DNA from: Candidatus Saccharimonadia bacterium
Lineage (GTDB): Bacteria > Patescibacteriota > Saccharimonadia > UBA4664
Direction: 5' to 3'
DNA: 64,000 bases
NCBI GenBank assembly: GCA_035544015.1
Contig: DATKIP010000010.1
Location: forward strand, 6,449 to 70,448
This document shows, in pieces, positions 1,928 through 34,836 of this stretch (position 1 is the first letter of the stretch; every line of letters begins with the position of its first letter). Under the pieces are notes generated by a model. The model was not told the origin of the DNA and did no database searches. It was given only the letters and a program-made list of their open reading frames with translations. The position numbers and the translations under genes were made by a program.

Positions 1928-4900
1928 CTACCGCGCAGCCGTAAAGGTATTGCGGTATTGGAAATAATCTAAAACGAGCGCCCGACCCACCGTTCCGGCT
2001 TGTTTAATAATCGAAAAAGACGGCTCTGTACCATTCGTCGTACCGGTAGGTACGTTCGTCGCACTCGCGATACTGCCAATCGAAACATCGTCCACAAAGT
2101 ATTCGATGTTATTCGTGGCATGCACCCACACCTTGAAATGGTGCCAGCCGGCTGAAAAGCTTGTGGTCGAGGCTGTTTCCGTGACCGAACCACCCTTGGC
2201 CACCGCATAGACCCATTTCGTCGTACTTACTGCCCGATCAATTTTAAAATACATACCGTCGGTGCAAGCTCCAGTCTGACTATCACACAGACCCATATAA
2301 ACGTCATAATCATTGGTGGCATCTGGCACGGTCGGAATATTAACCGCAAATTCCATTTCTTCGCCTCCACCCACAATCGTTTGCTCGGGCCCGGCGCTAC
2401 CGTACCATACGCTCGCCTTCCCCGTCGTTGTGGTGCCGGTAATCATCGAAAACTGACCAATTCTCGTCGCCAAATCAGGACCAGTGGCGGCCGATGAAGA
2501 ACTAGTTCCACTCGCGCCTGAATTCCAATTTCTCCCCCCGTCCACAAATTCTTCTTCAATATTAAAGCCCCATAATAACCCCGCCGGATCATTACAAAAT
2601 CGCCACGAAGAATCATAATAACAACGCATTCGCCGATAGCCGGAATTGTAGTACATCGCTCCGTCAAGACCAGATGGATCGACGGCAACCGTCTTGGTAT
2701 CGAGCACCAGAACCGCCCCCACCGTATCGGGCGTCCGATTGCCCACATACACTCGGTCATTTGAAGTATCCACAAGCAGTTCTGACAATCCGCCACCATC
2801 CTGCACCTCAAAGGCGTCACCAGCCACCTTTACGAGCGCTGTCCCATCCACCTCCAGCATGCGCGACGGACTACCGGTACCAATACCCACTTTGCCCACA
2901 GCAATCGAACCATTGTAGGCCAGGAGTATGTTGCCATCGGTACCGCTATTGACCTTAGCCCCACCGTAGGCTAGCACGTCGCCACCGTTGGCGTTGCCGG
3001 TGGTGCCGGCCGCCGCCCCAGCCGCCAGCGTCAGCGACCCGCCGGCAACGCCCGTAGCCCCGCTGCCGCCGGCCCCCGCCGTCACCGTGAGAGCATTACC
3101 GGCCGCGTTGGTGGTGCGCGTAAGCACGTTCACGGCGCGCGTCGAGCCCTCGCCAAAGGTCAGATCGGCGCTCGCCACACTGGCCGTCGGCAAATTCACC
3201 CCGATCTGCCCCGACGAATTAACATCAAACAAAATCTTGGAGCTCCCCGCCAGATACAAAGGATATCGGTTGGTACCCGACGTAAGGTTATCCACATACA
3301 CCCCATACGCGTTGGTCGGCGCCACCGAGCCGGCGTTATCCGCCACCTTCAGCACATAGCTATTGGTCACCGCCGAGCTGAGCGTATTCTCAGCCAAAAT
3401 CCCAATCGCGTTCGTCACCGCCCCGGTACCACTATTCACAATAGTTTTTCCCGCAAATCCAATGAGCCGACCAGTCGACACGTTACTCCCCTGCCAGCTC
3501 ACCTGACTATAAGCCGCCATGTAATCCCCGCTATAAGTAATCGAGCCCCCGCTGGCGGGCTGGGCAATAAAGCCATTGCCCAAAGTCGTCGCTGAGTTGG
3601 CCGAGCCCGGCGATGTCGTCAGAGTAGATCGCGCCCCCACCCCAAATCCCGTAGTGTCACTATTGGTCATATCGATCGAGACCGTCGGAATCCCCCCGGT
3701 GGCCGTACCGGTCAAACTCACCGCCCCCGTCACCGTCAAACCCCCCGTACCCTGAATGAGCCCCGTCCCCGCATTCACCCCCACCGCCGTCAGTGCCCCG
3801 GCTGCACTCACCTTTGCCAATGTCGTACCCGCGCTGTTCTGCGCCTGAAACAAATCACCGCTTTGACTCACCGCACCCTGCACCACCAATACTGCGTTGC
3901 TAGCTGCATCTGAAACAAAGAGCCCACTGCTAGTCACCACCCCCCTACCCGAAGCCCAGGCATTACCAATCGTTCGGCTATAAACCCGGACAGTCGAACC
4001 CGTCCACAATTGAGCCCCCCATGCCCTCACCGTTCCCGATCCAGCGGTACCGCCGGGGAAAATAACCGCCACCATGTTACCCGTAAACCCCGTGCCATTC
4101 TGCGTCACACTAAACCGTTGCCAGGTCGTAGTAGCAGTCACCGTAGTTTTGGTTCCCGTCCCCAAAGTCGAACCATCAATACGCAAATCCACCGCCTGCG
4201 TGCCAGTGGTCGTTTTGAGCCACACACTAAAGATAAAAGTCGAACCCGACGCAACCAAAGTCGAGGGCTGACTCACCAAGCCACCAGGGCTACTATCGGC
4301 CAAACTCTCAGCAGTGGTAGAGGTATTCGGCGCCGCATCAGTATCAGCCACCGGAGTAGTCACGTTTGTCTTCGTCCAAACCGCATTGTCAAATTGCTCC
4401 GAATAGAGCAGACCATTCCCACTTTTTCCAATACCGCCAAAGGAACTATTGATAATACCCAACATCTCCAGATCTCCCCCCGCGTTCACTCGGCCAATGG
4501 TCGCCCCCGTGCTATCCTGTACCTGCAAAAAGTCCGCCGTCTGGCTGCTGGCGCCCTGAATCACCACGCCCGTGTTCGAGGCCACATTCGTTGCCACGTT
4601 CAAGGCCGTTTGCGACCCGCCAGCCGCCCCGGTCACGCCCACCGTCCCGGTCGCCGCCGATACCGTCAGATAATCCACGGTGGCGCCACTATTTTGAACC
4701 CGCAACAAGTACCCCGTTTGACTCGTCGATTGTTTTATCACGGCCGTATCAGCACTCGTGGAACCATTGTTGACCAGGGCAAAGTTGCCGTTCTGAAAGC
4801 CCGTACTATTCTGAATATAATTGCCCGAACCCGCCGCCGGCGTACACACCGTACCGCTACATACCGTCGTCCCGCCAATTTTGTATGCCCCCGAAGCCTG

Positions 4901-6145
4901 AATATTCACGCTCAAATCCGAAGCGCTGGCCGTCAGCAAGGTAGTAGCGTCGGACTTCAGCGCCAGATCCCCGCCGCTCGTCTTAAAATACGCCGTCGAG
5001 CTCCCGCCTTCCCACGAAAAACCCGCCAATCGATTCTCGCTCTGGCTCCACAGCGCAATCGCCGGCCACAAGTTACTATTCGTCCGCGCGTCAAACACCG
5101 ACAACCCTGTGCCGTGATCCGCTGCCGCACCGGTGAGCCCGGTCGCAATCACCGCCGCTCCCGCCGCCACGGCGTACTTTGAAACCGCCAGCGTACTCGG
5201 GATGCCGCCCGTCACCGCCGCGTACGATGTCAGATTCGAACCCGCCGCCGAGAAAATCGCTCCGCCGTTCACTTCAAACGTCGCCTGCGGATTAGCCGTA
5301 CCCAGATTCACCCCCACCCGGTTATTCGACGTATCCACGGTCAAAATATTGGTCGTCGTTCCCGCCTTTTGCACCACGAGAGCCGCCACAGAATCGGTGC
5401 TGGGCCGAAACACCGTCTGCCCCGCATTGTTAATCTGCAGCACCACCGCCGCGCCGCGCTGCAGGTTGATGATATCCGCGGTACCACCCGTCTTGTTGAT
5501 GCCGATCGAAGGGTTCGATGTCGAGCTGTCGGTTTGCACCCCCTGGGCCAGCTGCACAAATTGCCCGCTCGTCAGCCCACCCAACTTCCCTGCATTATCG
5601 GCCTGCAACGCATACACCGCCGAGCTGAGTCGCTTCATCGGCAGCAATTCGCCGTCGTACGTGGGCGTATTTGACACCGCCGTCCCGCCCACATCCATGC
5701 TCAGCCACAGCGTATCCTGGTTGAAGTCTATAGCCGTATTCGTGTTACCCTGGCAACTCCCCCCGCTAAACGCACAGTAAGTGCCAAGCGTCGCCGAGAA
5801 GTACCCGTTTTTGACCACCACCCCCGCCGACGACCCCGAGGCCACCGAATTTTGCCACAGCTCTGTCCACTTCAAGGTTCCGCCGGTATCACCTGCTACG
5901 TTACCCGGACCGTCTTGATAGATCTTAAACCGCAGGTTGTAATTACCGTCGGCCACCACCGCCCCAGTGTTGGTCAGCAAACGGCCTTGAAAATTAATCT
6001 GCTTATTAATCCCGGCTGCCGCCTGAACCGACGACTGACCGCCATCCCCCCCAACCACAACGAACCCAGCAACCGCGAGGGTCAGGGCTATACGTAGAGT
6101 GATGCGAACGAGACGCCGACAAAAACCGTGCTGGAGCTGACCCAT
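1928..6145 (-). CDS. giant secreted fibrous surface protein (1405 aa); Gly/Thr/Ala/Ser-rich beta-helix-like repeats; C-terminal concanavalin A-like/LamG-like lectin domain; no membrane or sortase anchor
   Basis: Signal-like N-terminus, then mature AAGINKQINFQGRLLTNTGAVVADGNYNLRFKIYQD module shared with the 18628-25395 giant protein. C-terminal WHHFKVWVHATNNIEYFVDDVSIG is ConA-like. Low-complexity repeats throughout. Confidence 0.8.
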   Translation of the reverse strand: MGQLQHGFCRRLVRITLRIALTLAVAGFVVVGGDGGQSSVQAAAGINKQINFQGRLLTNTGAVVADGNYNLRFKIYQDGPGNVAGDTGGTLKWTELWQNSVASGSSAGVVVKNGYFSATLGTYCAFSGGSCQGNTNTAIDFNQDTLWLSMDVGGTAVSNTPTYDGELLPMKRLSSAVYALQADNAGKLGGLTSGQFVQLAQGVQTDSSTSNPSIGINKTGGTADIINLQRGAAVVLQINNAGQTVFRPSTDSVAALVVQKAGTTTNILTVDTSNNRVGVNLGTANPQATFEVNGGAIFSAAGSNLTSYAAVTGGIPSTLAVSKYAVAAGAAVIATGLTGAAADHGTGLSVFDARTNSNLWPAIALWSQSENRLAGFSWEGGSSTAYFKTSGGDLALKSDATTLLTASASDLSVNIQASGAYKIGGTTVCSGTVCTPAAGSGNYIQNSTGFQNGNFALVNNGSTSADTAVIKQSTSQTGYLLRVQNSGATVDYLTVSAATGTVGVTGAAGGSQTALNVATNVASNTGVVIQGASSQTADFLQVQDSTGATIGRVNAGGDLEMLGIINSSFGGIGKSGNGLLYSEQFDNAVWTKTNVTTPVADTDAAPNTSTTAESLADSSPGGLVSQPSTLVASGSTFIFSVWLKTTTGTQAVDLRIDGSTLGTGTKTTVTATTTWQRFSVTQNGTGFTGNMVAVIFPGGTAGSGTVRAWGAQLWTGSTVRVYSRTIGNAWASGRGVVTSSGLFVSDAASNAVLVVQGAVSQSGDLFQAQNSAGTTLAKVSAAGALTAVGVNAGTGLIQGTGGLTVTGAVSLTGTATGGIPTVSIDMTNSDTTGFGVGARSTLTTSPGSANSATTLGNGFIAQPASGGSITYSGDYMAAYSQVSWQGSNVSTGRLIGFAGKTIVNSGTGAVTNAIGILAENTLSSAVTNSYVLKVADNAGSVAPTNAYGVYVDNLTSGTNRYPLYLAGSSKILFDVNSSGQIGVNLPTASVASADLTFGEGSTRAVNVLTRTTNAAGNALTVTAGAGGSGATGVAGGSLTLAAGAAAGTTGNANGGDVLAYGGAKVNSGTDGNILLAYNGSIAVGKVGIGTGSPSRMLEVDGTALVKVAGDAFEVQDGGGLSELLVDTSNDRVYVGNRTPDTVGAVLVLDTKTVAVDPSGLDGAMYYNSGYRRMRCYYDSSWRFCNDPAGLLWGFNIEEEFVDGGRNWNSGASGTSSSSAATGPDLATRIGQFSMITGTTTTGKASVWYGSAGPEQTIVGGGEEMEFAVNIPTVPDATNDYDVYMGLCDSQTGACTDGMYFKIDRAVSTTKWVYAVAKGGSVTETASTTSFSAGWHHFKVWVHATNNIEYFVDDVSIGSIASATNVPTGTTNGTEPSFSIIKQAGTVGRALVLDYFQYRNTFTAAR

Positions 6146-6236: not shown

Positions 6237-7169
6237 TTACCGCTCCAAAAGCAAATGTCGACGACGCAATTTTCGCAGTTCGCGACGTTCGCCCAGCCAA
6301 AAAAATATCACCATCACCACCGCCAAACCATACAGCGGCCAGGCTGTCACCAATGCCCCCGGCAAGGCCCCCAGTCCGTGCGACGCGCCGTAAGCCTCCA
6401 CCGGTCCGTTCACGACCGTCACCACCTGAAGATAAGCCGTATTCCCCAAGCTGTCCGTCACGCGCACGATCACCTGATACGTCCCAGGCTGCGCGTAGGT
6501 GTGACGAGCCGTCACCGCCCCCTCTCCCGTCTGGCTCGACAAACTCGTGGCGTAATCGCCAAAATCCCAGCTCACCGCGTACGGACCCACGCCACCCACA
6601 ATCGTAATCGTACGCGCAATCTGTTCCCCCGGATTGCCCCCCAGCACTGTTTGGCTGGTCTCCAGAAACAGCTGTTTGCCCACCGTGCCCGCCGTCCGGT
6701 CCAGCGAGGGCGCATCATAAAACACCGTTACCGCCGGCGAATCCGGCCCAAATTGGCCGAGCGCATCGGATACCCGCGCTACCAAGCGATTGGCCCCAGC
6801 AAACAAGTCCACCAGCAGCGAAAAGGTGCCGTCGTCACGACACACGGTCGCGCCCGCAAATACCTCGTTTTTCTCGATCGTCACAAACGTCCCCGCCGGA
6901 CACGCTCCCGACACCGTCACCGGAATGCTCGAGGTATGCGAACCATCGCTGGGGCTCAGAATCGTCGCCGACACGCTCGGAGCCGGCCCGCGCACCGTGC
7001 CGATGAGCCCCACCGAGCCCGATTGCGGATTCACCGCCGGCGCCGCCGCCGAAACCGTCAGGCTCGCGCCCACCAGCAACAACCCCGATACCAGCAGCCC
7101 AAACAACAATCCCGCGTACGAAGTGTGCCGATGCGGCCTCACCCTGCCAAAATGCTCGTTGCCCAGCAT
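6237..7169 (-). CDS. PKD-domain bitopic membrane protein (N-terminal signal-anchor, C-terminal TM helix plus basic tail)
   Basis: VSWDFGDYATS...HTYAQPGTYQVIVRVTD is a textbook PKD motif. C-terminal ...VVMVIFFWLGERRELRKLRRR. Paralog of 32021-32983. Confidence 0.75.
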   Translation of the reverse strand: MLGNEHFGRVRPHRHTSYAGLLFGLLVSGLLLVGASLTVSAAAPAVNPQSGSVGLIGTVRGPAPSVSATILSPSDGSHTSSIPVTVSGACPAGTFVTIEKNEVFAGATVCRDDGTFSLLVDLFAGANRLVARVSDALGQFGPDSPAVTVFYDAPSLDRTAGTVGKQLFLETSQTVLGGNPGEQIARTITIVGGVGPYAVSWDFGDYATSLSSQTGEGAVTARHTYAQPGTYQVIVRVTDSLGNTAYLQVVTVVNGPVEAYGASHGLGALPGALVTAWPLYGLAVVMVIFFWLGERRELRKLRRRHLLLER

Positions 7170-8143
7170 TACCGGCGGTTATTCGCCTGTTCAATGATGT
7201 GCTGGTTGTACCGGCGCAGGCCCAATCGCAGCAGGAAGAACAATACCAACAGGCCCACCAGCACCAGCCCGATCAATCGCCACGGAATCACCCAAAACGT
7301 CAGCGTGCTATCGAGCTTTTTGTTCCCGGCGTACGTCAACGACAATTTGGCCGTATACCGACCAAACAGCCGCTTTTCGCTCCAAGCCAGCTCAAACCGC
7401 CGAATACTATCGGGCAGCACATTGCCACCTTTGTCGTTAACCTTCAGATTAGCTACCTGCCGGCCAAACATATTGGTGATCTTCACCGACCCCTGCGGTT
7501 TTTCGTGCACACTGCCGTCATTCTTGACCCGCACCAAAAAGTCCAGCGGCCCATACTCAAACCAAGGTCCCGGCTTACCCTGCCGCGTCACACCAAATTC
7601 CGTCAACGACAACTGATCTTTAATCTGCCCGCTCACTTTGAGCAATATCAACGTCCCCACGCTCGCCGACAAGGCCACGCCCGTACCCTCAAGCTCCGGC
7701 GGCACCGCCGTAAACCGCACCACCCCAAAGTGTCCGCCCGGCTCCGCGTTCGCCGGCACCGCAATGCTCACCGTAGTCGACTTCAATTCTTGCGGCGCCA
7801 ACCTCAAATCCGGCACCCCCGACACCCAATATTTAAGCGAAAACCGCGTGGCGCCCGTTTCATCGAGCAGCAACCTCGGCTTACCCTCTTCGTCGGCCCC
7901 GGCACCAAAGTCGTCGGCCTTGCCCTTGGCGATCAACTCACCGCGCGTCACATTGCGCACACGAATAGCAGCCGTGACCGTCTGGCCCGGATCCGCCTCG
8001 AGCTCGATCACGGGCGGCGAAATTTCCAATCCCTGGCCGGGCGAACCCACGGGCGGCGTGGGCGTGGAGGCCCAAGCCAACGTGGGGGCCACCATTACAA
8101 CGCCCAGGAGACTAATTAGTCCACTCACATACCACTTACGCAT
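7169..8143 (-). CDS. DUF916/DUF3324-like (CscA-like) cell-surface protein with C-terminal TM anchor
   Basis: Signal peptide MRKWYVSGLISLLGVVMVAPTLAWA. GSVHEKPQGSVKITN and FWVIPWRLIGLVLVGLLVLFFLLRLGLRR at the C-terminus. Paralogs at 25635-26579 and 26588-27652 share the GNVHVVP and WVIPW motifs. Family assignment by motif and topology only. Confidence 0.55.
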   Translation of the reverse strand: MRKWYVSGLISLLGVVMVAPTLAWASTPTPPVGSPGQGLEISPPVIELEADPGQTVTAAIRVRNVTRGELIAKGKADDFGAGADEEGKPRLLLDETGATRFSLKYWVSGVPDLRLAPQELKSTTVSIAVPANAEPGGHFGVVRFTAVPPELEGTGVALSASVGTLILLKVSGQIKDQLSLTEFGVTRQGKPGPWFEYGPLDFLVRVKNDGSVHEKPQGSVKITNMFGRQVANLKVNDKGGNVLPDSIRRFELAWSEKRLFGRYTAKLSLTYAGNKKLDSTLTFWVIPWRLIGLVLVGLLVLFFLLRLGLRRYNQHIIEQANNRR

Positions 8144-8206: not shown

Positions 8207-9229
8207 TTAAAACGAAGCAGTACAAATATATGTCATAGTCGCCGTATACACTCCCGCCGCCTGCGCGCCACCAATATTCACGATATACGATGACGTAAAC
8301 GTATTCGCGTTCGTGGGCGCCAGCCCCGCGGCCACCACGTCACCACTCGCGAACCGATACAAATCAGGCGTGCCATACGCACCGCTAAACGTCCCACTGC
8401 CCGCACCGCTCGGATCTGCCCCCAGCGCCGGGGTCCCATTGGCCCGCAAATTCAGGCCAAACTGGCTCGTCCCGATCACACTCCCCGTCTGCGTCGCCAA
8501 GGCTGGTATCGTATTTACACCCGACGCCAACGTGGTACCCGTAACAGTGATCGCGTAGCCATTCGCCGCATTCGTCTGCGCCTGCATCACGCTCGTGCCC
8601 GACCGCGTCACCGTGGGCGAAAAATCTCCAAAATCAATCGTCGAGCCACTTACCGTCGTGCAGTTGCCCGCAATCGACGTACCGACACAAAACACCAGAA
8701 TCTCCGGCGTCACCCCGGTAAGCTGCACCGGCTGGGCGGTACTCAGCGCCACCGTGCCCGTATCGACCGCCCCCGTTGCACCGTCGGTGCCCGTGTAGGT
8801 CGTAATGCGCACAAAGTAGCTCAAGTTGGCTGTGCTCGGGTTGGTGATAGACCCAAGCGTAAAACTCATGGCCGTTCCCGCACCCACCGGCGCCGCCGTG
8901 CGCGTAATATACGGCGCTCCATTCGAGCCGTTCACCATACTAAACCCGCCCGGGCTCTGCGCCGCCAACGTCGCGCTCGTAGTCACCACGCCAGCCGGCG
9001 TCACGCACGCCCCTGTGGGCGCACCACAAATCTGAAAACCCACGGAGCCGATGCTAGCCGCCGTCGCCGTGGTCGCGTTCACGGCGTAGCTGGTGCTCAC
9101 GCCCTGGCCGCTCGATCCCACCACCACATTGCGGGGCGCCAAGCCAGCCGCCTCGGTGGCCAGTGGCATCAATCCAGTCACCCACACCCCCGCCACTATG
9201 AGTCCAGTGCGCAGTTTGCCCATGATCAA
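8207..9229 (-). CDS. secreted WxL-like surface protein (divergent C-terminal WxL-type motif)
   Basis: Signal peptide. Conserved FQICGAP, LVFCVGTS and FGLNLR-N-TP-G-D-SG motifs. C-terminus GVYTATMTYICTASF resembles G-Y-G-LTWTL of WxL domains with W replaced. 4-nt overlap (ATGA) with the upstream gene. Confidence 0.55.
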   Translation of the reverse strand: MIMGKLRTGLIVAGVWVTGLMPLATEAAGLAPRNVVVGSSGQGVSTSYAVNATTATAASIGSVGFQICGAPTGACVTPAGVVTTSATLAAQSPGGFSMVNGSNGAPYITRTAAPVGAGTAMSFTLGSITNPSTANLSYFVRITTYTGTDGATGAVDTGTVALSTAQPVQLTGVTPEILVFCVGTSIAGNCTTVSGSTIDFGDFSPTVTRSGTSVMQAQTNAANGYAITVTGTTLASGVNTIPALATQTGSVIGTSQFGLNLRANGTPALGADPSGAGSGTFSGAYGTPDLYRFASGDVVAAGLAPTNANTFTSSYIVNIGGAQAAGVYTATMTYICTASF

Positions 9230-10317
9230 AACGTTGCAGTACAGATGTACGTTAACGTCGCCGTATACACACCTGCCGCTTGATCGCCGCCCACATTCAC
9301 GACATACGAGTTGGTAAACACATTGCTCTTCGTCACCCCCGCCACACTCGCTACCGTATCGCCATTGAAAAACCGAAAGCTATCGGGCGTGTTGTAGCCG
9401 CCAAATCCCGTCGCCGTACCGAGGCCGCTCACGTCCGTGCCCACATTGGGAGTCGCGTTATCGCGCACATTGGTGCCAAATTGCGCCACCCCTGTAGCAG
9501 CACTACAACTCGGCGTGCAACCGCCGGAATTCCCGCTCTGCGTCCCCATGGCCGCAATGGTGTTCGAGCCGCTCGTGAGCGTGGTGCCGTGAAGCGTGAT
9601 GGCGTAGCCAAAACCCGCATTGGTGCTCGCGCTCATGAGGCTCGTGCCGGTGTTCGTGGCTGTGGGCGAAAACACCCCCAGGTTCACCGCCGACCCCGTG
9701 ATATTGGTGCAATCGGTCCCGCTCGTTCCCACGCAAAACACGAGGCTCTCGGGCATCACGCCGCTCGCCACGATCTGGTTGGCCGTATCCATCGCCACCG
9801 CCCCAAAGTCCGTCCCCGGATACGCCGGCGCTGCAGCCGCCGCATCAGTATAGGTTGAGATGCGCAGAAAATACTCTTTGTTGCTAGCGCTCGGATTCGT
9901 CACATTGTTGAGCACCACCGAGGCCGCACCGTTCAAGGTAGCCGCCGAATGCGTCAGCACCAGATTCGTCCCCGAGGCCGAGGCGCCCGTCTGCGACCCC
10001 ACCGACCACCCCAAGCCGAGCGACATACTCCCAAGCGTCGCCGCCCCCAGGCTGGCCCCGCTCGAGTCACCCGTACCCGCACAGGCCGTAGTCAGCACCG
10101 GCGAGTCACAAATCTCAAATTTGATCGAGCCCAACGATTGGCTCCCCGAAAGCGTAAACCCAATCGTGTACGCCACCCCCGTGGCGCCCCCGGCCGAGGT
10201 CGACACCACCGCATTGCGGCTCGTCAGCTGGCCAGCCGCCTGCGCGACAGGCGATAACCCAGCACACACCACGAGCCCCACAACCATCGCCGCTATTATT
10301 TTTTTTGTTTGTTTCAT
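9226..10317 (-). CDS. secreted WxL-like surface protein paralog
   Basis: MKQTKKIIAAMVVGLVVCAGLSPVAQA signal. FEICDSP, LVFCVGTSGTDC, FGTNVRDNATPNVGTDVSG. C-terminus GVYTATLTYICTATF. Confidence 0.55.
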   Translation of the reverse strand: MKQTKKIIAAMVVGLVVCAGLSPVAQAAGQLTSRNAVVSTSAGGATGVAYTIGFTLSGSQSLGSIKFEICDSPVLTTACAGTGDSSGASLGAATLGSMSLGLGWSVGSQTGASASGTNLVLTHSAATLNGAASVVLNNVTNPSASNKEYFLRISTYTDAAAAAPAYPGTDFGAVAMDTANQIVASGVMPESLVFCVGTSGTDCTNITGSAVNLGVFSPTATNTGTSLMSASTNAGFGYAITLHGTTLTSGSNTIAAMGTQSGNSGGCTPSCSAATGVAQFGTNVRDNATPNVGTDVSGLGTATGFGGYNTPDSFRFFNGDTVASVAGVTKSNVFTNSYVVNVGGDQAAGVYTATLTYICTATF

Positions 10318-11452: not shown

Positions 11453-11596
11453 CAACCCGCGGTAATGAGCGTATAAAATTTCCCGCTTGGTCATGTGCTT
11501 GATAAATCCTTCATTTATTTTGCTGCGGCCACTATCCAATTCATCATAGCATAAGCACTGTTTCGAGTGTCAATGAACTCGCGTGCGGCAAGCACT

Positions 11597-13431: not shown

Positions 13432-13450
13432 TAATCACGGAAACTCCACC

Positions 13451-25395: not shown

Positions 25396-25483
25396 GCGTC
25401 GGCTGTTTCCACCCGTTACCCGAAATCTTCGACTCGTTGCGAGACGACTGGGTACGCGCACACCTTCACACAATTACTCCCTA

Positions 25484-25634: not shown

Positions 25635-26579
25635 TTATCGGCGGTGACGCGGCCGCACCCACAACCACCACGCCAACCCGCCCACCGCCGCGAGCGCCAG
25701 CAACCCCACCATCCACACCACTATGGCTCCCGCATACCAAAAACCGGTCACCAACGTCTTGGTAGCCTCCGTGCCGTCGTACCGGTATGTAGTTGTCAGC
25801 GAATACCGTCCCGGCAACCACGCCACCTTCGTGCCCAGCAAACCGACCCGATAGCGCCGAAAACTTTCGGGCAAAATTACTCCCGACGCCTCGTTGATAG
25901 CCGCTCGCTCCACCACCCGCCCCACCGGGTCCTTCACCTCCACCACCCCGCGCGGCACCACATGCACGTTGCCGCCGTTTTGAAACCGCAGCTCCACCCG
26001 ACCCGGCAACCGCACCCACCCCGCCGCGCTCGTCTGCGACGCCAAGCGCAAATCAACCTGCTGGCCACCATCCTTCACCGCCAACACCAAGCTCGAAAGT
26101 ACCTGCTTCACTCCCACCTGCTGACTCGCCGGCTGCCCGGCGTCATCCACCGCCGTCGCCAACACCGCCCCATAATGGCCGCCCGGCGCTAGCGTAGCGC
26201 GGTTATCAATCGTTACCAACACCTCCATCGTCGCCCCTGCCGACACAAACACCGCATTCTTCTCGAGCACCATCCACGACGCCAACCCATACTTGTGCAC
26301 GAGCTCGCTCGCCGGCGTGCCCAAAAACGCCACCCCACCTTGCTCGTCGAGCGCCCCAAAGTCCACCACGCTCAACCGAAAATTCTGATCGGTCGGGTTG
26401 CGATTCGTTAACTTCAGCGCATACTGCACACTCGGCTTATCCGCCGGCACCACCACCTGCGCAAACGCCGGTGATACCACAAGACCCGTCCCGCCCGTCG
26501 CCGCGCTCGCCCATCCTGGCCAAAAACCGCTCACCAAAGCAAAAATAATCCCAGCGCACCACGCTCTCCCCCGCCGCAT
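25635..26579 (-). CDS. DUF916/DUF3324-like (CscA-like) surface protein with C-terminal TM anchor
   Basis: Start at MRRGRAWCAGIIFALVSGFWPGWASA signal (ATG 26577-26579). FQNGGNVHVVPRG. C-terminal GFWYAGAIVVWMVGLLALAAVGGLAWWLWVRPRHRR. Confidence 0.55.
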   Translation of the reverse strand: MRRGRAWCAGIIFALVSGFWPGWASAATGGTGLVVSPAFAQVVVPADKPSVQYALKLTNRNPTDQNFRLSVVDFGALDEQGGVAFLGTPASELVHKYGLASWMVLEKNAVFVSAGATMEVLVTIDNRATLAPGGHYGAVLATAVDDAGQPASQQVGVKQVLSSLVLAVKDGGQQVDLRLASQTSAAGWVRLPGRVELRFQNGGNVHVVPRGVVEVKDPVGRVVERAAINEASGVILPESFRRYRVGLLGTKVAWLPGRYSLTTTYRYDGTEATKTLVTGFWYAGAIVVWMVGLLALAAVGGLAWWLWVRPRHRR

Positions 26580-26587
26580 CTCGATAC

Positions 26588-27652
26588 CTACCTTCGGCGC
26601 CGGCCGAGCCGCCGCGCCCCGCGCAAAGTCCCCCGCACCACCGAGTACACTCCAAAGCCCACGATCGCCAACACCACCGCCAGCACCGCCAAGAACCGCC
26701 ATGGAATCACCCAAAACGACACGTCGGCCTCAATCGGCACATCGCGCTTACCATCGTCATACACCGCAAACAAATGCCCCGTATACCGCCCAATCCGCAG
26801 CTTCGTCAGCTGCGTCCAGTCCCACTTGAGTTTTTGGACATGATTGCCGTTCTTGTCCAGCTTCACCTTACCGTCTTCCACCACATCCTCGTACACCGGA
26901 AAACCCTCGGTCCACTCCGATGGATAAACCCGGTTCGATCCCGGCAAAATATTCCCAAACGCACTATTGATCGGCACCACCCCTAGCTGCTTGTTCCCGC
27001 GCATAATGAAAACATCACCATGCGGCACTACGTGCACGTTGCCCGTATTCTTAAACGCTACCTTAAAATCCGCCGGCAAAAACTCATAAATCCGGTGCAT
27101 CGAGGTAAACGAAGCCAGGCCCAGCGTACGTTTCGCATTCGGCGAGCGCGCGTCGAGCAGCACCAACGTAGCCGCCGCCCCCGCCACCGAGTTGGTGCGT
27201 TCGCCTCGCTTCACATCGTCCCCCACGCGCGAAAACGCCACCGCATAGTAATACCCAAACGCCGCCGTTTTCGGCACGTTGATCGTCATTTTCACCGTCT
27301 GCCACACGTTCGCCGGAGCATCAAACTGCGTCTTATCAAACTTTACCCAATCAAAATAATCATCCCCCGGTTGCCGGTCCATCAGCTCCGGTTTGCCCTC
27401 CTCGCCATACGCGCGAAACTTCATGAGCGACACCTTGAGCCGCGCATCACTGCCACTATTTTGTTTTACCCGCAAATCGGCCGACACGCTCTTGCCCGGA
27501 TCCGCCTCCAGATTGATCGGCAGCGGCGAGACCTGCAGCACGAGCGCTCCCGTGCCGGGCGCCGGCGCATCCGCCGCACTCGCCACCGCCGGCGCCAGCC
27601 CCCAAGCCAATGCTAGCGCCACCCCCATTATCCGCACAATCACTCGCTTCAT
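26588..27652 (-). CDS. DUF916/DUF3324-like (CscA-like) surface protein with C-terminal TM anchor
   Basis: Signal MKRVIVRIMGVALALAWGLAPAVASA (ATG 27650-27652). FKNTGNVHVVPHG. C-terminal FWVIPWRFLAVLAVVLAIVGFGVYSVVRGTLRGARRLGRRRR. Confidence 0.55.
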   Translation of the reverse strand: MKRVIVRIMGVALALAWGLAPAVASAADAPAPGTGALVLQVSPLPINLEADPGKSVSADLRVKQNSGSDARLKVSLMKFRAYGEEGKPELMDRQPGDDYFDWVKFDKTQFDAPANVWQTVKMTINVPKTAAFGYYYAVAFSRVGDDVKRGERTNSVAGAAATLVLLDARSPNAKRTLGLASFTSMHRIYEFLPADFKVAFKNTGNVHVVPHGDVFIMRGNKQLGVVPINSAFGNILPGSNRVYPSEWTEGFPVYEDVVEDGKVKLDKNGNHVQKLKWDWTQLTKLRIGRYTGHLFAVYDDGKRDVPIEADVSFWVIPWRFLAVLAVVLAIVGFGVYSVVRGTLRGARRLGRRRR

Positions 27653-27665
27653 CTCAAGACCCAGG

Positions 27666-28724
27666 TTAAAAATTACCGGCGCCCACCACCGTAATCGTGT
27701 CAGTATAATCATTACCCGCCGGCGTTGCCGCCGAAATCGTCGCTCGCTCGATCAGCGAAATCACATCCCCGTTGGCCGTCCCGCCGGTGCACGCAGCAAT
27801 CGGCTGATAGGTGGTGCTAAGCGTACCACCTTGAGCCGTTGTAGCGCCATTATATTCCGCATCAACCGCCAGCGTGCAGCCGCCGCTCGCATCGGTCGTC
27901 AAATCCGTATCGAGCACGTAGCCTTCGGCCCCGCCGTTGATCGTCGACGGCGCACCATTCACCGTGCCGGCCGTCGGGATCGTATAGGTCGTCGAAGCCG
28001 AATGCAGCCCCCCAAACTGATCCTTCGCCCACGCGATCCAGCCGCCCTTGGCGTTCGTGGTCACGGTCGCCGTCACCCCGTTCGTCGATACAATGCCGCC
28101 GGACCCCACCGTCGGGTCAAGGTTGCCCGTAAACGTATCCGCGTACCCGCTGAGCGTCAAAATAAACGACGGCGGCACTACAGCCGTCACCACGATCGAG
28201 TCATCGGTGTTATTCGCCAAAGCCACATACGTAAAGTCCACCACCACGCTACCCGAAGTCTGCGTCTGAATATTCGCCTGCTGGCTATTGGCCGCCGCGG
28301 ACGCCGTCGTGAGCGTACTCGTGCCGGAAAAATTAAAACAATACTGCGTGCCTACTGTGAGGTCGCTCGAAGGAAATGTCGCTGCTTTGGTACCGTTATC
28401 CGCATTCGAAGCCGTCGTAATGCCCGGCCAAGCCGTTGCCGTAGCCGGAATATTGGTTGTAGTCACCGTCCAGTTGGCCGCCGTAGTGTTGAGCGTATAT
28501 GTCGAAGGAAACGTCACGATAACCTTAGCCTCTGTTCCCACCGTGGCGGGCGTGGCGCAAACCATCCCCCCCGTCGCCGTGTTGACCTTCATGCGATCGA
28601 GCCGCACAAAGGCCTGCTGAAATGCCCCCTCGGCCGTTGCCGGGAGGAGCTGTCCCACCACACTGAGCATCAACGCTACAGCCGAAACTACTCTCAAAGA
28701 CGGGCGCCGACTCCAGCGGTGCAT
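27666..28724 (-). CDS. secreted WxL-like surface protein paralog
   Basis: Signal. GMVCATPATVG. C-terminus NDYTDTITVVGAGNF. Confidence 0.5.
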   Translation of the reverse strand: MHRWSRRPSLRVVSAVALMLSVVGQLLPATAEGAFQQAFVRLDRMKVNTATGGMVCATPATVGTEAKVIVTFPSTYTLNTTAANWTVTTTNIPATATAWPGITTASNADNGTKAATFPSSDLTVGTQYCFNFSGTSTLTTASAAANSQQANIQTQTSGSVVVDFTYVALANNTDDSIVVTAVVPPSFILTLSGYADTFTGNLDPTVGSGGIVSTNGVTATVTTNAKGGWIAWAKDQFGGLHSASTTYTIPTAGTVNGAPSTINGGAEGYVLDTDLTTDASGGCTLAVDAEYNGATTAQGGTLSTTYQPIAACTGGTANGDVISLIERATISAATPAGNDYTDTITVVGAGNF

Positions 28725-30110: not shown

Positions 30111-30122
30111 CCCAGTCCCTGG

Positions 30123-31175
30123 CTAAAAACTCGCCGACGCCACCGCCGTCAGCACCTCTGCGTAATCTCCCGACGCCGGTGTCAGCGGTTTGGTTTTGGC
30201 CTTCAAAATAAACGACCCGCGACCACCCACCAGCGGCGCCGGCGCCGAAAAAATCTCGCGGATCAACGCATCGGCGGTGCCCACATTCGCCGCCGACCCG
30301 TTATACGGCGCGGTCAGCGCCAGCGGACCGCCCGAACTCTGCGTCGCCGACACCCCCTGCGCCCCGAAGCCCTCCGCCACCGCGCTCAGATCCGCCGTCG
30401 CCGCCCCAATCGTGTAAGCCGCCTGCGTACTTTTGAGCCCAGCATTCTGCCCACTCAGATACACCTTGCCCCCCGATTCGCCGTTCGTATCCAAGCTCAC
30501 CCACACCCGCTTGGCCGAATCCGTCACCGTGCTCACGAGCAAGCTCCCAAAGTCGATCTGATACGGCGGGCTCGTGCTCGTATCCGTCGTAGCCACGTCA
30601 ATGTCAAACGCCAGCTGCGGATCCACCGTCGCCGCACTCGTCGTCGGTCCATACCCGCTCTCGGTGAATTTACCTCGATACGCCTTGGCCTTCACCGTGT
30701 ACACCGTACTCCGCGCCAGCCCTCGCACCATCACCCCCGCACCCGAACCCCAGGCCGCGTACGTTTGGTAATCACCAAAGCTCAGCGACGAGCCGATGGT
30801 CAAATCGCTCTTTATATAGCGTGTATCCGCCACAAAATTATCAGTCGAAATCGCCACCGCAAACACCGCGTCACTCGGATTGTTCGCCGGGCCAATCAGC
30901 ACTTTGAGCTTGTTGTACCAGTTGTCATCATTACTAATCGTCACCGTCGGCACATTGGCCTGCTTCTCGTGCGCCTCGCCCGCTCCCGCCTTGTAGTTGG
31001 CCGACGAGGCCGACCCCGCCACCTCGCCCGCCGCGCCGTTAATCCGGTAATTGGCGGAGCTCGAATTCGCCGTCCCGCCATTGCCGAAGCCGTACGAATT
31101 CAATTCATAATTTCCGCTCGCTGGCAGCCCCGCTATCATCCAGCCGGCCAACCACACCCCCAGCCACTTGCCCAT
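30123..31175 (-). CDS. secreted WxL-like surface protein paralog (ATG at MGKWLGVWLAGWMIAGLPASG; the ORF track begins 4 codons upstream at a GTG)
   Basis: C-terminus GDYAEVLTAVASASF. Start ATG overlaps the upstream TGA (TGATG). Confidence 0.5.
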   Translation of the reverse strand: MGKWLGVWLAGWMIAGLPASGNYELNSYGFGNGGTANSSSANYRINGAAGEVAGSASSANYKAGAGEAHEKQANVPTVTISNDDNWYNKLKVLIGPANNPSDAVFAVAISTDNFVADTRYIKSDLTIGSSLSFGDYQTYAAWGSGAGVMVRGLARSTVYTVKAKAYRGKFTESGYGPTTSAATVDPQLAFDIDVATTDTSTSPPYQIDFGSLLVSTVTDSAKRVWVSLDTNGESGGKVYLSGQNAGLKSTQAAYTIGAATADLSAVAEGFGAQGVSATQSSGGPLALTAPYNGSAANVGTADALIREIFSAPAPLVGGRGSFILKAKTKPLTPASGDYAEVLTAVASASF

Positions 31176-31906
31176 CACTGCTTCCACCGCAAGCTACCTT
31201 TAATAAGCGCCATAATCGCCGAAATATCGTCGTGCGGATCAGTGCTAGTGATCGAAATTGTCAGGTTTTTGCCTCCATGAGGCCAAAATAACGTCTGCTC
31301 GTGGCCATCGGTTTTGGTCATGAACTTCACGGTCTCGCCACCCACCACCTCGGCACTCGCCCGGTAATCCGCCGCATGGATTTCGCGCACCCGCCAGCTC
31401 GCATCGTCCGCTAGCTGGCCGCTCGGCAACGGCCGCACCTCCACCGCCACCCGATGCCTGTAATTCGTTTTGGAACCTATCGTATACTGCTCGAGCACTT
31501 GCGCGTCACTTTTGGACTGCGACACCTGGTCAAACATACCCGGATACGTAAACGAAATAATGAGTCCCGCCAGCACATTCGTGTCTGCGGGTGTAGCCGT
31601 CGGCGCCGCTTCAGTTTGCACCTGCCCCAACACCTTGGCCTGCGCCTCCACCGGCCCGTCCACCAGCCGCATCACGCCCACGACCACGCCGCCCGCCAGC
31701 GCCCCGACCACCACGAGCGACGACAGCCACGCCGCCATATGCGCCCGGCCTCGCCGCCGCGGGCGCTCCGCCTCGCCGGGCTCACGGCCGTCTCCAGCCA
31801 CTTCGGCCACCACCTCCTGCGGCGACACCCCGTGGAGCTGCGCCGCATGCCGCACCGTCCGCCGCAGCTCCTCGTCATTCACGCTCGGGCCTCCTAACAA
31901 AACCAT
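31175..31906 (-). CDS. hypothetical single-pass membrane protein (cytoplasmic Arg/Glu-rich N-terminus, TM, extracytoplasmic domain)
   Basis: AHMAAWLSSLVVVGALAGGVVVGV TM. G/T wobble typical of - strand genes. Start codon lies inside the 18-bp inverted repeat. Confidence 0.5.
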   Translation of the reverse strand: MVLLGGPSVNDEELRRTVRHAAQLHGVSPQEVVAEVAGDGREPGEAERPRRRGRAHMAAWLSSLVVVGALAGGVVVGVMRLVDGPVEAQAKVLGQVQTEAAPTATPADTNVLAGLIISFTYPGMFDQVSQSKSDAQVLEQYTIGSKTNYRHRVAVEVRPLPSGQLADDASWRVREIHAADYRASAEVVGGETVKFMTKTDGHEQTLFWPHGGKNLTISITSTDPHDDISAIMALIKGSLRWKQ

Positions 31907-32019: not shown

Positions 32020-32020
32020 C

Positions 32021-32983
32021 TCATGCCAGCGCCGCCAATCGCTTCTCCATGATCCGCTTCTCGCGCCGCTCACCGAGCCAAAACGAGACGATCATCAGCA
32101 GCAGCACAATCCACAGCGGCCAAATAATCAGCAAATTCGTCGCCACCGGCACCGTCGCCGCCTTATTTCCCGCCCCCGCTGTCGCCGCGTTCACAATCGT
32201 CGTCAGTTGCAAGTACGCCGTATGCCCCACCGCATCCGTCGCCCGAATAATCAGCGGAAACGAGCCCAAATACCCCGTCCCCACTTTCCGATACGTATGC
32301 TTCACCGTAAACGGCCCCGGCGCCAGCCGCGTTATCAAATCCGACGTCCCGTCACCCCAATCCACGCTCACCGCATACGGCGCCTGGCCGCCCACGATCT
32401 CCACCGGCCAGGTAATTTCCGCCCCCGGCTCGCTGCCGCGGTAGAAGTTCACCGACTGCAAAATCAACTCCGTCGAAAACCCATACCCGCCCGGCGGCTG
32501 ATTGAGCGTCACGGTCACCGTCGGCGAGGTCGGACCCTCCTGATCGAGCGTGTTGTACGGCAGTGCCGTCAAATCATTTCTACCCACCACCAGATCCACC
32601 GGCACCTTAAAGTGCCCACTCGCGTCGCAAATCACACTGCCCACCAAAATACCGTTCGTAAACACCTTAATGAGCGCTTTGTCCGGGCACGTACCCTCCA
32701 CCGTCACCGGGTTGGTCCCAAATGTCTGGCCACTCGACGGTGAGGTAATCACCGCCGGCTTCGCCGGCCGCGGCCCCGGCACCACCGCCGTCACCCCATA
32801 CGACGCACTACACGTCGTCGACGGCGACGGATCACAACTATCCGCCCGTACCGACCATGTAAATCCAGCCAGCAGCAACCCCACGCCGATCGTCAAAAAC
32901 AGCAACAGCGCATACGACGTATCCCGGTGGTGCGCAAGCCACCCGGTGTGCGAATAATGACTATACCTCGGGATCACAAGCAT
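32021..32983 (-). CDS. PKD-domain bitopic membrane protein, paralog of 6237-7169
   Basis: VSVDWGDGTSD...HTYRKVGTGY...IIRATDAVGHTA. C-terminal LLLMIVSFWLGERREKRIMEKR. Confidence 0.75.
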   Translation of the reverse strand: MLVIPRYSHYSHTGWLAHHRDTSYALLLFLTIGVGLLLAGFTWSVRADSCDPSPSTTCSASYGVTAVVPGPRPAKPAVITSPSSGQTFGTNPVTVEGTCPDKALIKVFTNGILVGSVICDASGHFKVPVDLVVGRNDLTALPYNTLDQEGPTSPTVTVTLNQPPGGYGFSTELILQSVNFYRGSEPGAEITWPVEIVGGQAPYAVSVDWGDGTSDLITRLAPGPFTVKHTYRKVGTGYLGSFPLIIRATDAVGHTAYLQLTTIVNAATAGAGNKAATVPVATNLLIIWPLWIVLLLMIVSFWLGERREKRIMEKRLAALA

Positions 32984-33011
32984 TATCTCGATTTTACCAT
33001 AACCAGATTGG

Positions 33012-33566
33012 CTAGCGGCTCGTCGGCGCCAGCGTCGTCATAGCTTCCCGAATAATCGACGTTTCACGGTTCACCACCCCCACCGCTCCCGGCGTGTCCA
33101 GACAAGCCGTCGGCGCTACATGATATACGTAATCGTATCCCGCAAGCGTGGCAATAAAATAATCCACCCCATTATGCCTGCTCGAAGCCACAAACGAGCC
33201 ACCGGGCAGCCGCAGCAATGCCCCCAGCGCGTTGTGATCGGCCCCGCAAGCCTCGCCAAGCTTCCGCACATCCTCGGCCGACAGTCCAATCCCCGACCCG
33301 CCCTGCCCGGCATAACTCACCAGCGGCAACTGCCGAGCCAACGGCAGCACCAGCGTCACGCCCCACTCTCCCACCGTCAAGGTTTGCGAACCATCCGGCC
33401 CCGGCGCCGCCACGACAAGTTTATTAGCCCGACTTTCCGCATCCACCTGATGGATGTGATCGAGCCACGCCCCCGCAAACGTACTCACCAACGACACCCC
33501 CACCGCCACCATCAACACCGGCCCCAACTCACGAGCCGCCCGCCACATTTTGCCACCACCTCGCAT
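33012..33566 (-). CDS. hypothetical N-terminally membrane-anchored protein; first gene of module-B operon
   Basis: LGPVLMVAVGVSLVSTFAGAW TM. 28-bp gap to the PKD gene. Confidence 0.45.
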   Translation of the reverse strand: MRGGGKMWRAARELGPVLMVAVGVSLVSTFAGAWLDHIHQVDAESRANKLVVAAPGPDGSQTLTVGEWGVTLVLPLARQLPLVSYAGQGGSGIGLSAEDVRKLGEACGADHNALGALLRLPGGSFVASSRHNGVDYFIATLAGYDYVYHVAPTACLDTPGAVGVVNRETSIIREAMTTLAPTSR

Positions 33567-33708
33567 ACCACACTCCAGTCGTCACAACGTTACTATCAAG
33601 CTTATGCTCCCACCGCTCGCCAGTCAATCGCTTGGCAACGGGCAATTGTGCCTTCAAACCACAAGCAGTATGCTATAACCTAATCAAGATACGAGTAACG
33701 CAAAAACC

Positions 33709-34836
33709 GTGGCAGACGAACCCAAAACCAACACCCCCGCCCCGGCCTCCCCGCCGGATGGTCAAACCACGCCCCCAGCCGCAGCCCCCACCCCAGACGC
33801 ACCGCCCACTGCCGATCCCGCCGCCGATTCCTCCGCCGAGGCCAAAGCCGTCGCCGCCTCCGTCCAAAAAGACCCACTCTCCGACGGCACCATCCCCACC
33901 GTGCTTACCCCCGGCGACAGCCACAAAAAAGTCCCCCGGGGCAAAGCCTCCATCACCTCCATCTACCGCCGCGCCGACATCATGACCACGCTCTTTACCT
34001 TCGTCGGCGCTCTCGTAGCCGCCGCGATTGTCGTGGGCATCTATGCCTACTTCACCCGCGCCCACTCCTCCACCACCCCGACCCCCACCAAAGTCGCCAC
34101 CCTCGATAAATCCGAGCTCGAAAAACTCGGCGCCTTCTTCGACGGCAACTCCGCCGGCGCCGGAGGCGAAATCCTCACTATCACTTCCTCCACCCTTTTC
34201 AAAAACCGTGTCGCCGTCGGCTCCGATCTCAAAGTCACCGGCGGATTGCAGGTCACCGCCACCGCCGCCCTCGCCGACCTCACCGTCGACAAAACCAGCA
34301 CGCTGGGCATCACCAACATCCGCGGCGCACTCACCGTCACCGGCCCGCTCACCGCCCAGAGCCCCGCCATCCTCGGCGCCGGCGCCACCATCACCGGCAA
34401 TCTCAATGCCACCGGCAACGGCACCTTTGGCGGCTCACTCTCGGCCACTAGTCTCAATGTCCACGACATCTCCGTCGCCGGCACCCTCAACCTCGCCGGC
34501 CACCTCTCGATCAGCGGCCAAAACCCGTCCGCCGCCCCCATCACCGGCGTCTCCACCTCGGCCTCGGTCGACGGCAACGACGCCGCCGGCACCGTCACGG
34601 TCACCGTCGCGCCCCACACCGGCAGCACCCCGTCGGCCCAGCTCGTCACCGTCACCTTCCGCAGCGCCTACCCCCGCGTGCCCCACATCGTCATCACCCC
34701 CATCGGCCCCGGCTCGGCCCAATTTCAGCCATTCATCCTCAAAACCGCCACCGGCTTCACCATCGGCGCCGCCGATTTCGCCACCCCCAACAACAACCCC
34801 ACCAGCTACTCGTTCGACTACTGGGTGGTGCAATAA
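33709..34836 (+). CDS. membrane-anchored beta-helix-repeat protein with conserved C-terminal beta-sandwich domain; paralog of 12484-13431
   Basis: GTG start. Pro/Ala-rich N-terminus, TM TLFTFVGALVAAAIVVGIYAYF, repeats LKVTGGLQVTATAALADLTVDKTSTLGITNIRGALTVTGPL. C-terminal VTVTFRSAYPRVPHIVITPIG...YSFDYWVVQ. Confidence 0.6.
   Translation: MADEPKTNTPAPASPPDGQTTPPAAAPTPDAPPTADPAADSSAEAKAVAASVQKDPLSDGTIPTVLTPGDSHKKVPRGKASITSIYRRADIMTTLFTFVGALVAAAIVVGIYAYFTRAHSSTTPTPTKVATLDKSELEKLGAFFDGNSAGAGGEILTITSSTLFKNRVAVGSDLKVTGGLQVTATAALADLTVDKTSTLGITNIRGALTVTGPLTAQSPAILGAGATITGNLNATGNGTFGGSLSATSLNVHDISVAGTLNLAGHLSISGQNPSAAPITGVSTSASVDGNDAAGTVTVTVAPHTGSTPSAQLVTVTFRSAYPRVPHIVITPIGPGSAQFQPFILKTATGFTIGAADFATPNNNPTSYSFDYWVVQ

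Follow-up and report, generated by a model that had tools for sequence, protein, structure and literature searches.

The stretch of DNA analyzed here, hereafter the window, comprises 64,000 nucleotides of the genome of a Candidatus Saccharimonadia bacterium (GenBank assembly GCA_035544015.1, contig DATKIP010000010.1, positions 6,449 to 70,448). Around half of it (positions 1928 to 34836 of the window) is occupied by two multi-gene cell-surface modules that probably encode pili of the Pam type. The open reading frames listed for this region in a preliminary description, which was made from the sequence alone, were all confirmed, positions included. Both modules, here called A and B, lie on the minus strand, and each is accompanied by a divergently transcribed gene (dA and dB, respectively). 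The longest reading frames of B7, B8 and B9 overlap neighboring genes or add leaders that are not signal peptides, and their starts were therefore probably placed too far upstream; likelier starts are included in the list of genes below, in which TM stands for transmembrane and Ig for immunoglobulin.

Module A:
11597-12373, minus strand: A1, PamT-type tip pilin (258 amino acids) with a single pilin C-domain and without a donor linker
10349-11539, minus strand: A2, Pam pilin (396 amino acids; CPR_Pam_pilin_C, 85 bits)
9226-10317, minus strand: A3, Pam pilin (363 amino acids; CPR_Pam_pilin_C, 141 bits)
8207-9229, minus strand: A4, Pam pilin (340 amino acids; CPR_Pam_pilin_C, 166 bits)
7169-8143, minus strand: A5, membrane-anchored PamC/PamD-type chaperone in which a signal peptide and a pair of Ig-like domains precede a C-terminal TM helix
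6237-7169, minus strand: A6, PamR (NCBIfam PamR, 296 bits, E 2e-88)
1928-6145, minus strand: A7, secreted tail-fiber-like giant protein (1405 amino acids)
12484-13431, plus strand: dA, divergent bitopic membrane protein, 32% identical to dB
13451-14026, plus strand: dA2, TM protein that contains a cohesin-like domain (Pfam Cohesin, 25 bits; cutoff 24.1)

Module B:
33012-33566, minus strand: B1, small membrane protein with tblastn matches in only three of the related loci described below (L067, L073 and L077)
32021-32983, minus strand: B2, B-type PamR (NCBIfam PamR, 289.8 bits, E 2e-87)
31175-31906, minus strand: B3, bitopic membrane protein with a tblastn match at the same position in every listed B-layout locus
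30123-31187, minus strand: B4, B-type tip-like pilin whose N-terminus resembles PamT and is separated from a pilin C-domain by ~120 additional amino acids
28833-29972, minus strand: B5, B-type major pilin (379 amino acids)
27666-28724, minus strand: B6, B-type major pilin (352 amino acids), 48% identical to B5 (BLASTP)
26588-27712, minus strand: B7, first of the two B-type chaperones with a membrane anchor (start probably near 27652)
25635-26714, minus strand: B8, second B-type membrane-anchored chaperone, ending in a TM segment and a basic tail (likely start the ATG near 26579)
18628-25473, minus strand: B9, giant fiber (likely true start the ATG at 25395, giving ~2255 amino acids)
14040-18626, minus strand: B10, Kelch beta-propeller giant protein (1528 amino acids) with an N-terminal signal or anchor sequence
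33709-34836, plus strand: dB, divergent paralog of dA (hhalign, 100%)

The assignments were made with NCBIfam release 20, which holds models for PamR (NF058578, equivalog cutoff 300), PamT (NF058579, cutoff 240) and the C-terminal domain of the Pam pilins (CPR_Pam_pilin_C, NF058581, cutoff 55), and with Pfam, run on 20 window proteins. A1 was recovered by CPR_pilus_PamT with 244.3 bits and by Pam_pilin_C with 140 bits, and the three pilins exceeded the cutoff of the latter model with the scores listed. In BLASTP, the identity of A2 was 38% with A3 and 35% with A4, and that between A3 and A4 was 45%. A2 is composed of a beta-sandwich at the N-terminus, a linker strand and, C-terminally, an acceptor domain, and A4 represents the pilin type that is most conserved across the related loci. 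A6 begins with a donor-strand mimic, continues with Ig-like domains of the Big/PKD type and ends in a TM anchor, an organization (mimic, Ig-like domains, anchor) that is also found in B2; Pfam reported PKD and Glucodextran_B for both, and above threshold for A6. The PKD assignment made earlier was thus confirmed by Pfam, as was the Kelch assignment of B10 (Kelch families down to E 1.7e-34).

The set of proteins encoded by module A corresponds to that of a known operon. Cryo-electron microscopy of the thin filaments of Ca. Mycosynbacter amalyticus has revealed two-domain pilins, PamA and PamB, connected by donor-strand exchange. According to the available text of the preprint, further products of the pam operon are PamE, the tip pilin PamT, the chaperones PamC and PamD, which are FimC/PapD-like and carry a C-terminal TM helix, and PamR, an RbmA-like Ig/FnIII protein with a C-terminal TM helix and with an N-terminal strand that, by prediction, plugs the last pilin; a tail-fiber-like gene is consistently co-localized with the operon (Troman et al. 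2026, bioRxiv 10.64898/2026.03.03.709456). Each part in this list has its counterpart in module A. Shared are the PamT-type tip, the two-domain pilins with a Pam C-domain, the FimC/PapD-like chaperones with a TM helix, a probable TM-anchored PamR with its N-terminal strand, the tail-fiber-like gene and the lack of an usher, and both organisms belong to the same bacterial class. With module A the Pam pilus family gains a member, and the earlier remark that no system of such composition had been described is outdated, considering this match to the operon in the preprint text. The order of the genes differs: in M. amalyticus it appears to be PamT-PamA-PamE-PamD-PamR-PamB-PamC, judged only by the consecutive accession numbers in the available text, whereas in module A PamT is followed by three pilins, one chaperone, PamR and the fiber. 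Furthermore, the window contains no pilin of the size of PamA (55 kDa), and the ATP synthase and CorB/MFS genes that, in the preprint text, neighbor the M. amalyticus operon are not found in it.

Module B deviates further from the described operon, as PamR comes first, a bitopic protein is added (B3, matched by no Pfam or NCBIfam family), the tip pilin has an extra middle region, two chaperones are present and the pilins are missed by NCBIfam. The PamT model recognized B4 with 30.7 bits (cutoff 240) and at the N-terminus only. Alignment of protein families with hhalign connected residues 25-89 of PamT to residues 20-76 of B4 (96.3%) and the C-domain of the B5/B6 family to residues 215-354 of B4 (97.9%). 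No link between A-type and B-type pilin-like proteins emerged from BLASTP, whereas hhalign aligned the A-pilin family with the B5/B6 family over the full length (93.7%, E 2e-7, 315 columns). All seven pilin-like proteins (A1-A4 and B4-B6) end in the same C-terminal strand motif, G.Y(T/S)..(L/I/M/F)T......(F/Y)-COOH. B5 is 100% identical to the NCBI entry 'hypothetical protein VMT30_00225', and its AlphaFold2 (AF2) model (pLDDT 86.8) contains two beta domains whose joining segment (~182-195, IVVSAVVPP) is not part of any strand in the monomer, which is what a donated linker should look like. A search of A4, B5 and three family profiles against the PDB sequences, in a copy without the Pam structures 25PZ and 25QA, gave nothing relevant, and the pilin profiles hit no chain of that copy at E<=10. 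Module B is a divergent Pam-like variant that is mostly missed by the NCBIfam Pam models used. A B-type operon is not mentioned in the available text of the preprint and its supplement (10.64898/2026.03.03.709456), a statement that leaves aside the language-model hits of that study.

The B-type pilins form a large family, with 715 representatives at 50% identity (E<=1e-3), 297 of which reach E<=1e-30. The best 150 matches of the B-pilin profile were all B-type, and that search did not directly show the bridge to the A-type. Some members are much longer than B5 and B6: four of them (P0344, P0349, P0351 and P0356; 784-1641 amino acids) carry a complete pilin module in their last ~320 residues. 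The NCBIfam matches within the scanned B-type set as a whole include models of a subtilisin/mycosin-like protease and an NHL-propeller. The large members may serve to display enzymes or binding domains on pili, or may be fusions created by gene calling.

The relation between the two modules was analyzed by all-against-all BLASTP and, for distant pairs, by hhalign of families built from related loci. The paralogy that had been noted before was confirmed and includes the divergent pair: A6 and B2 are 38% identical (E 1e-62; PamR families 100% in hhalign), A5 is 29% identical to B7 and 28% to B8 (100% and 99.8% in hhalign; chaperone families 99.3-100%), and dA and dB share 32% (E 6e-32). For A7 and B9, the BLASTP match covered the N-terminal module and one internal segment. 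The same gene families are thus repeated, as stated in the preliminary description; the further statement that they do so in nearly the same order does not hold, since PamR is the last gene before the fiber in module A and the first in module B.

To put these modules in context, an alignment of PamR was scanned against the GTDB species representatives, which yielded 80 loci, nearly all labeled Saccharimonadia, Saccharibacteria or Patescibacteria and a few just 'bacterium'. Mapping of every window protein onto these loci by tblastn revealed two sharply distinct arrangements, an A-layout in 55 loci and a B-layout in 13. The A-layout consists of the divergent dA gene, PamT, two to four pilins, a chaperone, PamR, the fiber and often a Kelch protein. 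The B-layout consists of the divergent dB gene, in some cases B1, and then PamR, B3, B4, B5, B6, B7, B8 and the fiber. Counting only loci with enough flanking sequence, PamT and the divergent dA/dB gene were each present in 42 of 42 A-layout loci, and the N-terminal module of the fiber directly followed PamR in 42 of 48; within the B-layout, the chaperones (9/9), the fiber behind them (9/9) and the divergent dB (13/13) were always found. As described earlier, these are multi-gene surface modules; they are co-conserved and not a chance collection. Five genomes harbor both types: the present one, UBA6017, SMAG_U5188, La6_metabat2.164 and SRP200132_co1_505. In UBA6017 the two operons are located on one contig, ~30 kb apart and in the B-then-A orientation seen in the window. 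Paralogous pairs between the modules are 26-38% identical, whereas the orthologs of each type in other genomes are 50-75% identical, which implies that the split between A and B predates much of the radiation of the Saccharimonadia. Considering that many genomes have conserved the one layout or the other, the duplication is ancient and both copies have been maintained; the earlier proposal that a whole unit was duplicated and diverged stands with respect to paralogy, and the duplication was not a local event.

Four of the loci form a subgroup of their own (L070, at 15134-17682, L074, L078 and L080). They contain PamT, a PamA-sized pilin of 444-491 amino acids, a second pilin, a chaperone and PamR, and no fiber; in L070 this set is followed by housekeeping genes that are MnmA- and AlaRS-like by reading of their translations. 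The same four loci have a second, longer PamR-like protein (353-407 amino acids), which in L070 comes after the housekeeping genes, directly upstream of a gene that seems to be PilM/FtsA-like, and hints at a PamR paralog linked to a type IV pilus cluster.

The two modules differ in the putative donor strand and agree in the way it recurs in PamR. The linker of the A-type pilins has the consensus qI.LtGtMPES and the mature N-terminus of the A-type PamR reads GSiGLtGtvP; for the B-type these sequences are IvVtAVVPPsF and v.AvVPgP, respectively. Judged by these sequences, each PamR N-terminus copies the donor strand of the pilins of its own module. Such cognate mimicry supports the model in which PamR acts as the terminator, and it suggests that the two modules are orthogonal, self-specific assembly systems within one cell. 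The mimicry is not found in the available text of the preprint (10.64898/2026.03.03.709456). The support for the presumed filament formation by donor-strand exchange in the window operons comes from the conserved linker and its imitation by PamR.

The chaperones connect the modules to a second known system. In the Csc clusters of Firmicutes, CscA is a WxL-interacting protein (WxLIP), composed of DUF916, DUF3324 and a TM segment, and the WxL proteins are CscB and CscC (Siezen 2006; Hassan et al. 2023, PMC10599100). An AF2 prediction has a strand of the DUF916 domain of WxLIP inserted into WxL, and it was proposed that WxLIP stably holds WxL in this way (Hassan et al. 2023, PMC10599100), which by analogy would be mechanistically close to strand complementation by pilus chaperones. 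In the AF2 model of A5 (pLDDT 88), a pair of beta-sandwich domains is followed by a helix at the C-terminus (288-323), and Foldseek ranked the WxLIP of E. faecium first (9i1y_A, E 6.9e-10) and WxLIP bound to a long WxL protein second (9i25_C, E 1.5e-9, TMt 0.59), followed by the chaperones of chaperone-usher pili (CfaA, CsuC, FimC and Caf1M). Around three quarters of the A5 relatives (53 of 69) matched PF06030 (WxLIP_PGBD, identical to DUF916) below threshold, with 14-22 bits (cutoff 27.3), over profile positions 21-120 of 121 and on the N-terminal domain. PF11797 (DUF3324) and the PapD families were never matched in the A5 family, and Pfam returned no WxL, DUF916 or DUF3324 match for the window proteins themselves (E<=0.1 for the two DUFs). 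Of the double label 'DUF916/3324-like' that these proteins had been given, the first half is favored by the fold and the sub-threshold matches, and the second half finds no sequence match.

The label 'WxL-like', which had been attached to A1-A4 and B4-B6, was rejected. PF13731 (WxL) matched none of 117 A-type and none of 83 B-type family members at E<=1, the W-x-L motif is absent from all seven proteins, and NCBIfam identifies A1-A4 as Pam pilins and PamT. In common with Csc, the modules have a secreted two-Ig protein of 320-380 amino acids with a C-terminal TM helix, the closest solved structure to A5 being of this kind, the co-encoding of this protein with two or more secreted beta-rich partners, and a monoderm envelope; there is also the weak PF06030 signal, and the strand insertion predicted for WxLIP is analogous to chaperone complementation. 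In contrast to Csc, the region lacks a WxL domain, the W-x-L motif, a DUF3324 sequence match and a small LPXTG-anchored protein like CscD, and its partner proteins are pilins that consist of two domains and a donor linker, whereas WxL proteins are thought to bind peptidoglycan and not to polymerize. PamR, the tip pilin, the giant fibers and the divergent dA/dB have no Csc counterpart. In agreement with what was reported before for the giant proteins, no C-terminal LPXTG sorting motif was found in any protein of the region; the sole LPASG match of B4 is located at residue 21, inside the signal peptide.

The giant fibers A7 and B9 possess signal peptides and lack LPXTG and a C-terminal TM segment. 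Across 60 loci they are conserved only in the first 200-300 amino acids, the remainder being hypervariable, and the mature N-terminus (aaGINqQINFQGRL...YNIqFKIYQDGDG) is near-invariant. A search with this N-terminal module recovered just 84 proteins, mostly fragments and mostly labeled Saccharimonadia, and did not bear out a wide distribution of the module in other phyla. A7 contains a GTA_spike_fiber domain of NCBIfam (gene transfer agent (GTA)/phage head-spike; 63 bits, residues 575-718) and weakly matches Bdello_MAT_N, the N-terminal domain of the mosaic adhesive trimer (MAT) fibers of Bdellovibrio; B9 has no Pfam, NCBIfam or PHROG match. PHROGs matched neither the fibers nor dA, dB, B1 and B3. 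Phage tail fibers and MAT fibers resemble A7 in that a conserved N-terminal module precedes a hypervariable distal part; A7 differs in having no PHROG match, a Sec signal peptide, a chromosomal location and synteny with a pilus operon. It is unlikely that the fiber N-terminus serves as a module-specific donor strand, as A7 and B9 have the same motif and the linkers of the modules differ. Direct docking of the fiber onto the pilus by strand exchange is possible but unproven, given this shared motif in the face of different donor strands and the existence of L070-type loci without a fiber. Full-length homologs of the B10-like Kelch protein occur in ~20 loci, usually after an A-type fiber. Most likely, although this is speculative, the fibers and the Kelch protein are variable host-recognition adhesins that function alongside the pili in episymbiotic attachment. 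The dA and dB genes encode universally syntenic bitopic proteins with a weak bactofilin-like signal; for dA, with its Pro-rich N-terminus, TM segment and repetitive extracellular region, a weak Bactofilin match was the sole family match in Pfam (E 0.012). The roles proposed for the fibers, the Kelch protein, dA/dB and B3 are all speculative. The small dA2 gene is located beside dA, and the related locus L001 has two copies in the same place (1959-3185).

Based on what was observed here, namely the assignment to families, the paralogy and synteny, the fold of the chaperone and the mimicry of the strand, we consider the region to encode two paralogous Pam-type pilus operons of the Candidatus Saccharimonadia bacterium, with a probability of around 0.8. 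The polymerization, order of assembly and anchoring outlined in the following are modeled on the work on M. amalyticus. The subunits would be exported by Sec, and an outer-membrane usher would not be needed. A filament would start with a tip pilin that has only an acceptor domain (A1, or B4 in module B) and would grow by the successive addition of two-domain major pilins (A2-A4, or B5-B6), where the inter-domain linker strand of the incoming pilin would enter the C-domain of the subunit added before it, an Ig-like fold that is incomplete. Folding and exchange may be assisted by the two-Ig-domain chaperones (A5, or B7 and B8), which would be tethered to the cytoplasmic membrane via their C-terminal helix. 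PamR (A6, or B2) would end the growth with an N-terminal strand that copies the linker, and would anchor the filament with its C-terminal helix in the membrane. Each operon is followed by the gene of a giant secreted fiber and, in module B, also by that of the Kelch propeller protein. The scheme resembles that of the chaperone-usher pili (Fim, Pap, CFA/I, Csu and Caf1), in which an incomplete Ig-like pilin is also completed by a donated strand and in which the sequence of tip, rod and terminator is the same, with PamR in a FimI-like role. It differs in the membrane-tethered chaperone, in the absence of an usher and of an outer membrane (no usher-like gene was matched by Pfam or NCBIfam in either module), in a donor strand that is an internal linker between two domains instead of an N-terminal extension, in a terminator that is itself the membrane anchor, and in the absence of detectable sequence similarity.

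Several observations weigh against this interpretation. A6 (296 bits) and B2 (289.8 bits) are just under the PamR equivalog cutoff, none of the chaperones A5, B7 and B8 is matched by an NCBIfam model, B5 and B6 match no NCBIfam or Pfam model, and CPR_Pam_pilin_C is matched weakly by just 3 of 122 B-type pilins. The correspondence to the individual proteins PamA to PamE is a putative one, derived from family models and the description in the preprint. Polymerization is deduced by analogy, as neither this organism nor any B-type operon has been connected to an observed filament, and the putative pairing of strand and groove rests on the mimicry described above. The proposed function of the fibers has almost no direct support, with a null result for PHROGs and a GTA-spike-fiber match as the single exception.

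These points leave room for other explanations. The preliminary description regarded a retention complex as a plausible function of the whole unit, and one may still imagine a Csc/WxL-type non-covalent assembly, bound to peptidoglycan, that holds the anchorless fibers and builds no pilus. The best structural match of the chaperone to the E. faecium WxLIP, including its complex with WxL (9i25), would fit such a complex, as would the sub-threshold DUF916 matches in 53 of 69 relatives, the tight co-conservation of fibers lacking an anchor motif with the small genes, and the conservation of only the N-terminal module of the fiber, as expected of a docking module. However, not one of 200 family members matched the WxL model or, among the window proteins, showed the motif, homologous proteins are filament subunits by cryo-electron microscopy in M. 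amalyticus, L070-type loci retain the full set of pilins, chaperone and PamR in the absence of a fiber gene, and the N-terminal motif of the fibers is the same in both modules despite different donor strands. The current evidence thus favors a donor-strand-exchange pilus, and we regard a pure retention complex as quite improbable. A related option concerns module B only: module A would be a true Pam operon, whereas the B-type proteins would be monomeric or short adhesins that are permanently held by their chaperones, in the manner proposed for WxLIP and WxL (Hassan et al. 2023). The position of the B-type pilins outside the NCBIfam pilin model, the presence of two chaperones for two pilins, and the existence of large members in which enzyme or propeller parts may precede a pilin module, reminiscent of large WxL proteins, could be explained in this way. 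Yet the logic of a polymer is complete in module B, with a linker-less tip-like subunit, a conserved pilin linker and a PamR that mimics it, and the homology to the Pam pilins is full-length, making a module B without filaments improbable as well. The idea that unrelated surface genes came together by chance, or that a local duplication happened recently and is without functional significance, has nothing in its favor apart from the low pairwise identities. It is refuted by the conservation of both layouts, gene for gene, in dozens of genomes and by the contrast between paralogs at 26-38% and orthologs at 50-75% identity.

The interpretation as two pilus operons and the relation to WxLIP could also be combined. 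In that case Pam pili and Csc/WxL would be branches of one ancient monoderm system, with module B as a third branch and with fibers that dock via their N-terminal strand, a possibility that we put forward with considerable reserve. The core of the system would be a membrane-tethered two-Ig chaperone (WxLIP, equivalent to PamC/PamD) that inserts a strand into its clients and so completes their folds. Module B would then stand for an undescribed large family (the 715 representative clusters mentioned above) with a pilin module that may sometimes be fused to proteases or propellers, and the fiber sequence aaGINqQINFQGRL, with its pattern of hydrophobic-x-hydrophobic-x-G-x-hydrophobic, might dock onto the pilus or the chaperone. 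The pilus would in this way serve to anchor host-recognition fibers that have no anchor of their own.

With respect to the window at large, the G+C content is ~60% and the strand bias is marked, the GC skew of the plus strand being negative throughout (-0.1 to -0.34 per 2 kb). Scans of the 64 kb detected no tRNA genes and no Rfam families. Positions 41192-45418 form a low-GC island (39-49% G+C) that encodes a SIR2-like protein adjoining a HerA/DUF87 helicase, which resembles an anti-phage pair of the SIR2-HerA type, and, on the opposite strand, a Schlafen/AlbA_2 protein. The island is probably horizontally acquired defense DNA in a CPR (Candidate Phyla Radiation) genome.

Pam pili are abundant thin filaments, described only in 2026, by which a parasitic CPR bacterium presumably makes contact with its host. 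The data presented here indicate that, in some Saccharimonadia, a pair of Pam-type systems orthogonal to each other is present in tandem. As the second type is mostly missed by the NCBIfam models used, surveys of genomes on basis of such models would undercount these pili. In structure and by a weak sequence signal, the Pam chaperone comes closest to the WxL-interacting protein known from enterococci and lactic acid bacteria, which suggests that the poorly understood Csc/WxL surface system of Firmicutes and the pili of CPR bacteria share a mechanism and perhaps an origin. WxL, and hence this link, is not mentioned in the available text of the preprint (10.64898/2026.03.03.709456); relative to that text, the link between chaperone and WxLIP and the cognate mimicry of the donor strand by PamR are new. 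Finally, the consistent linkage of hypervariable giant fibers to both types of operon makes these proteins prime candidates for the determinants of host range in episymbiotic CPR bacteria.

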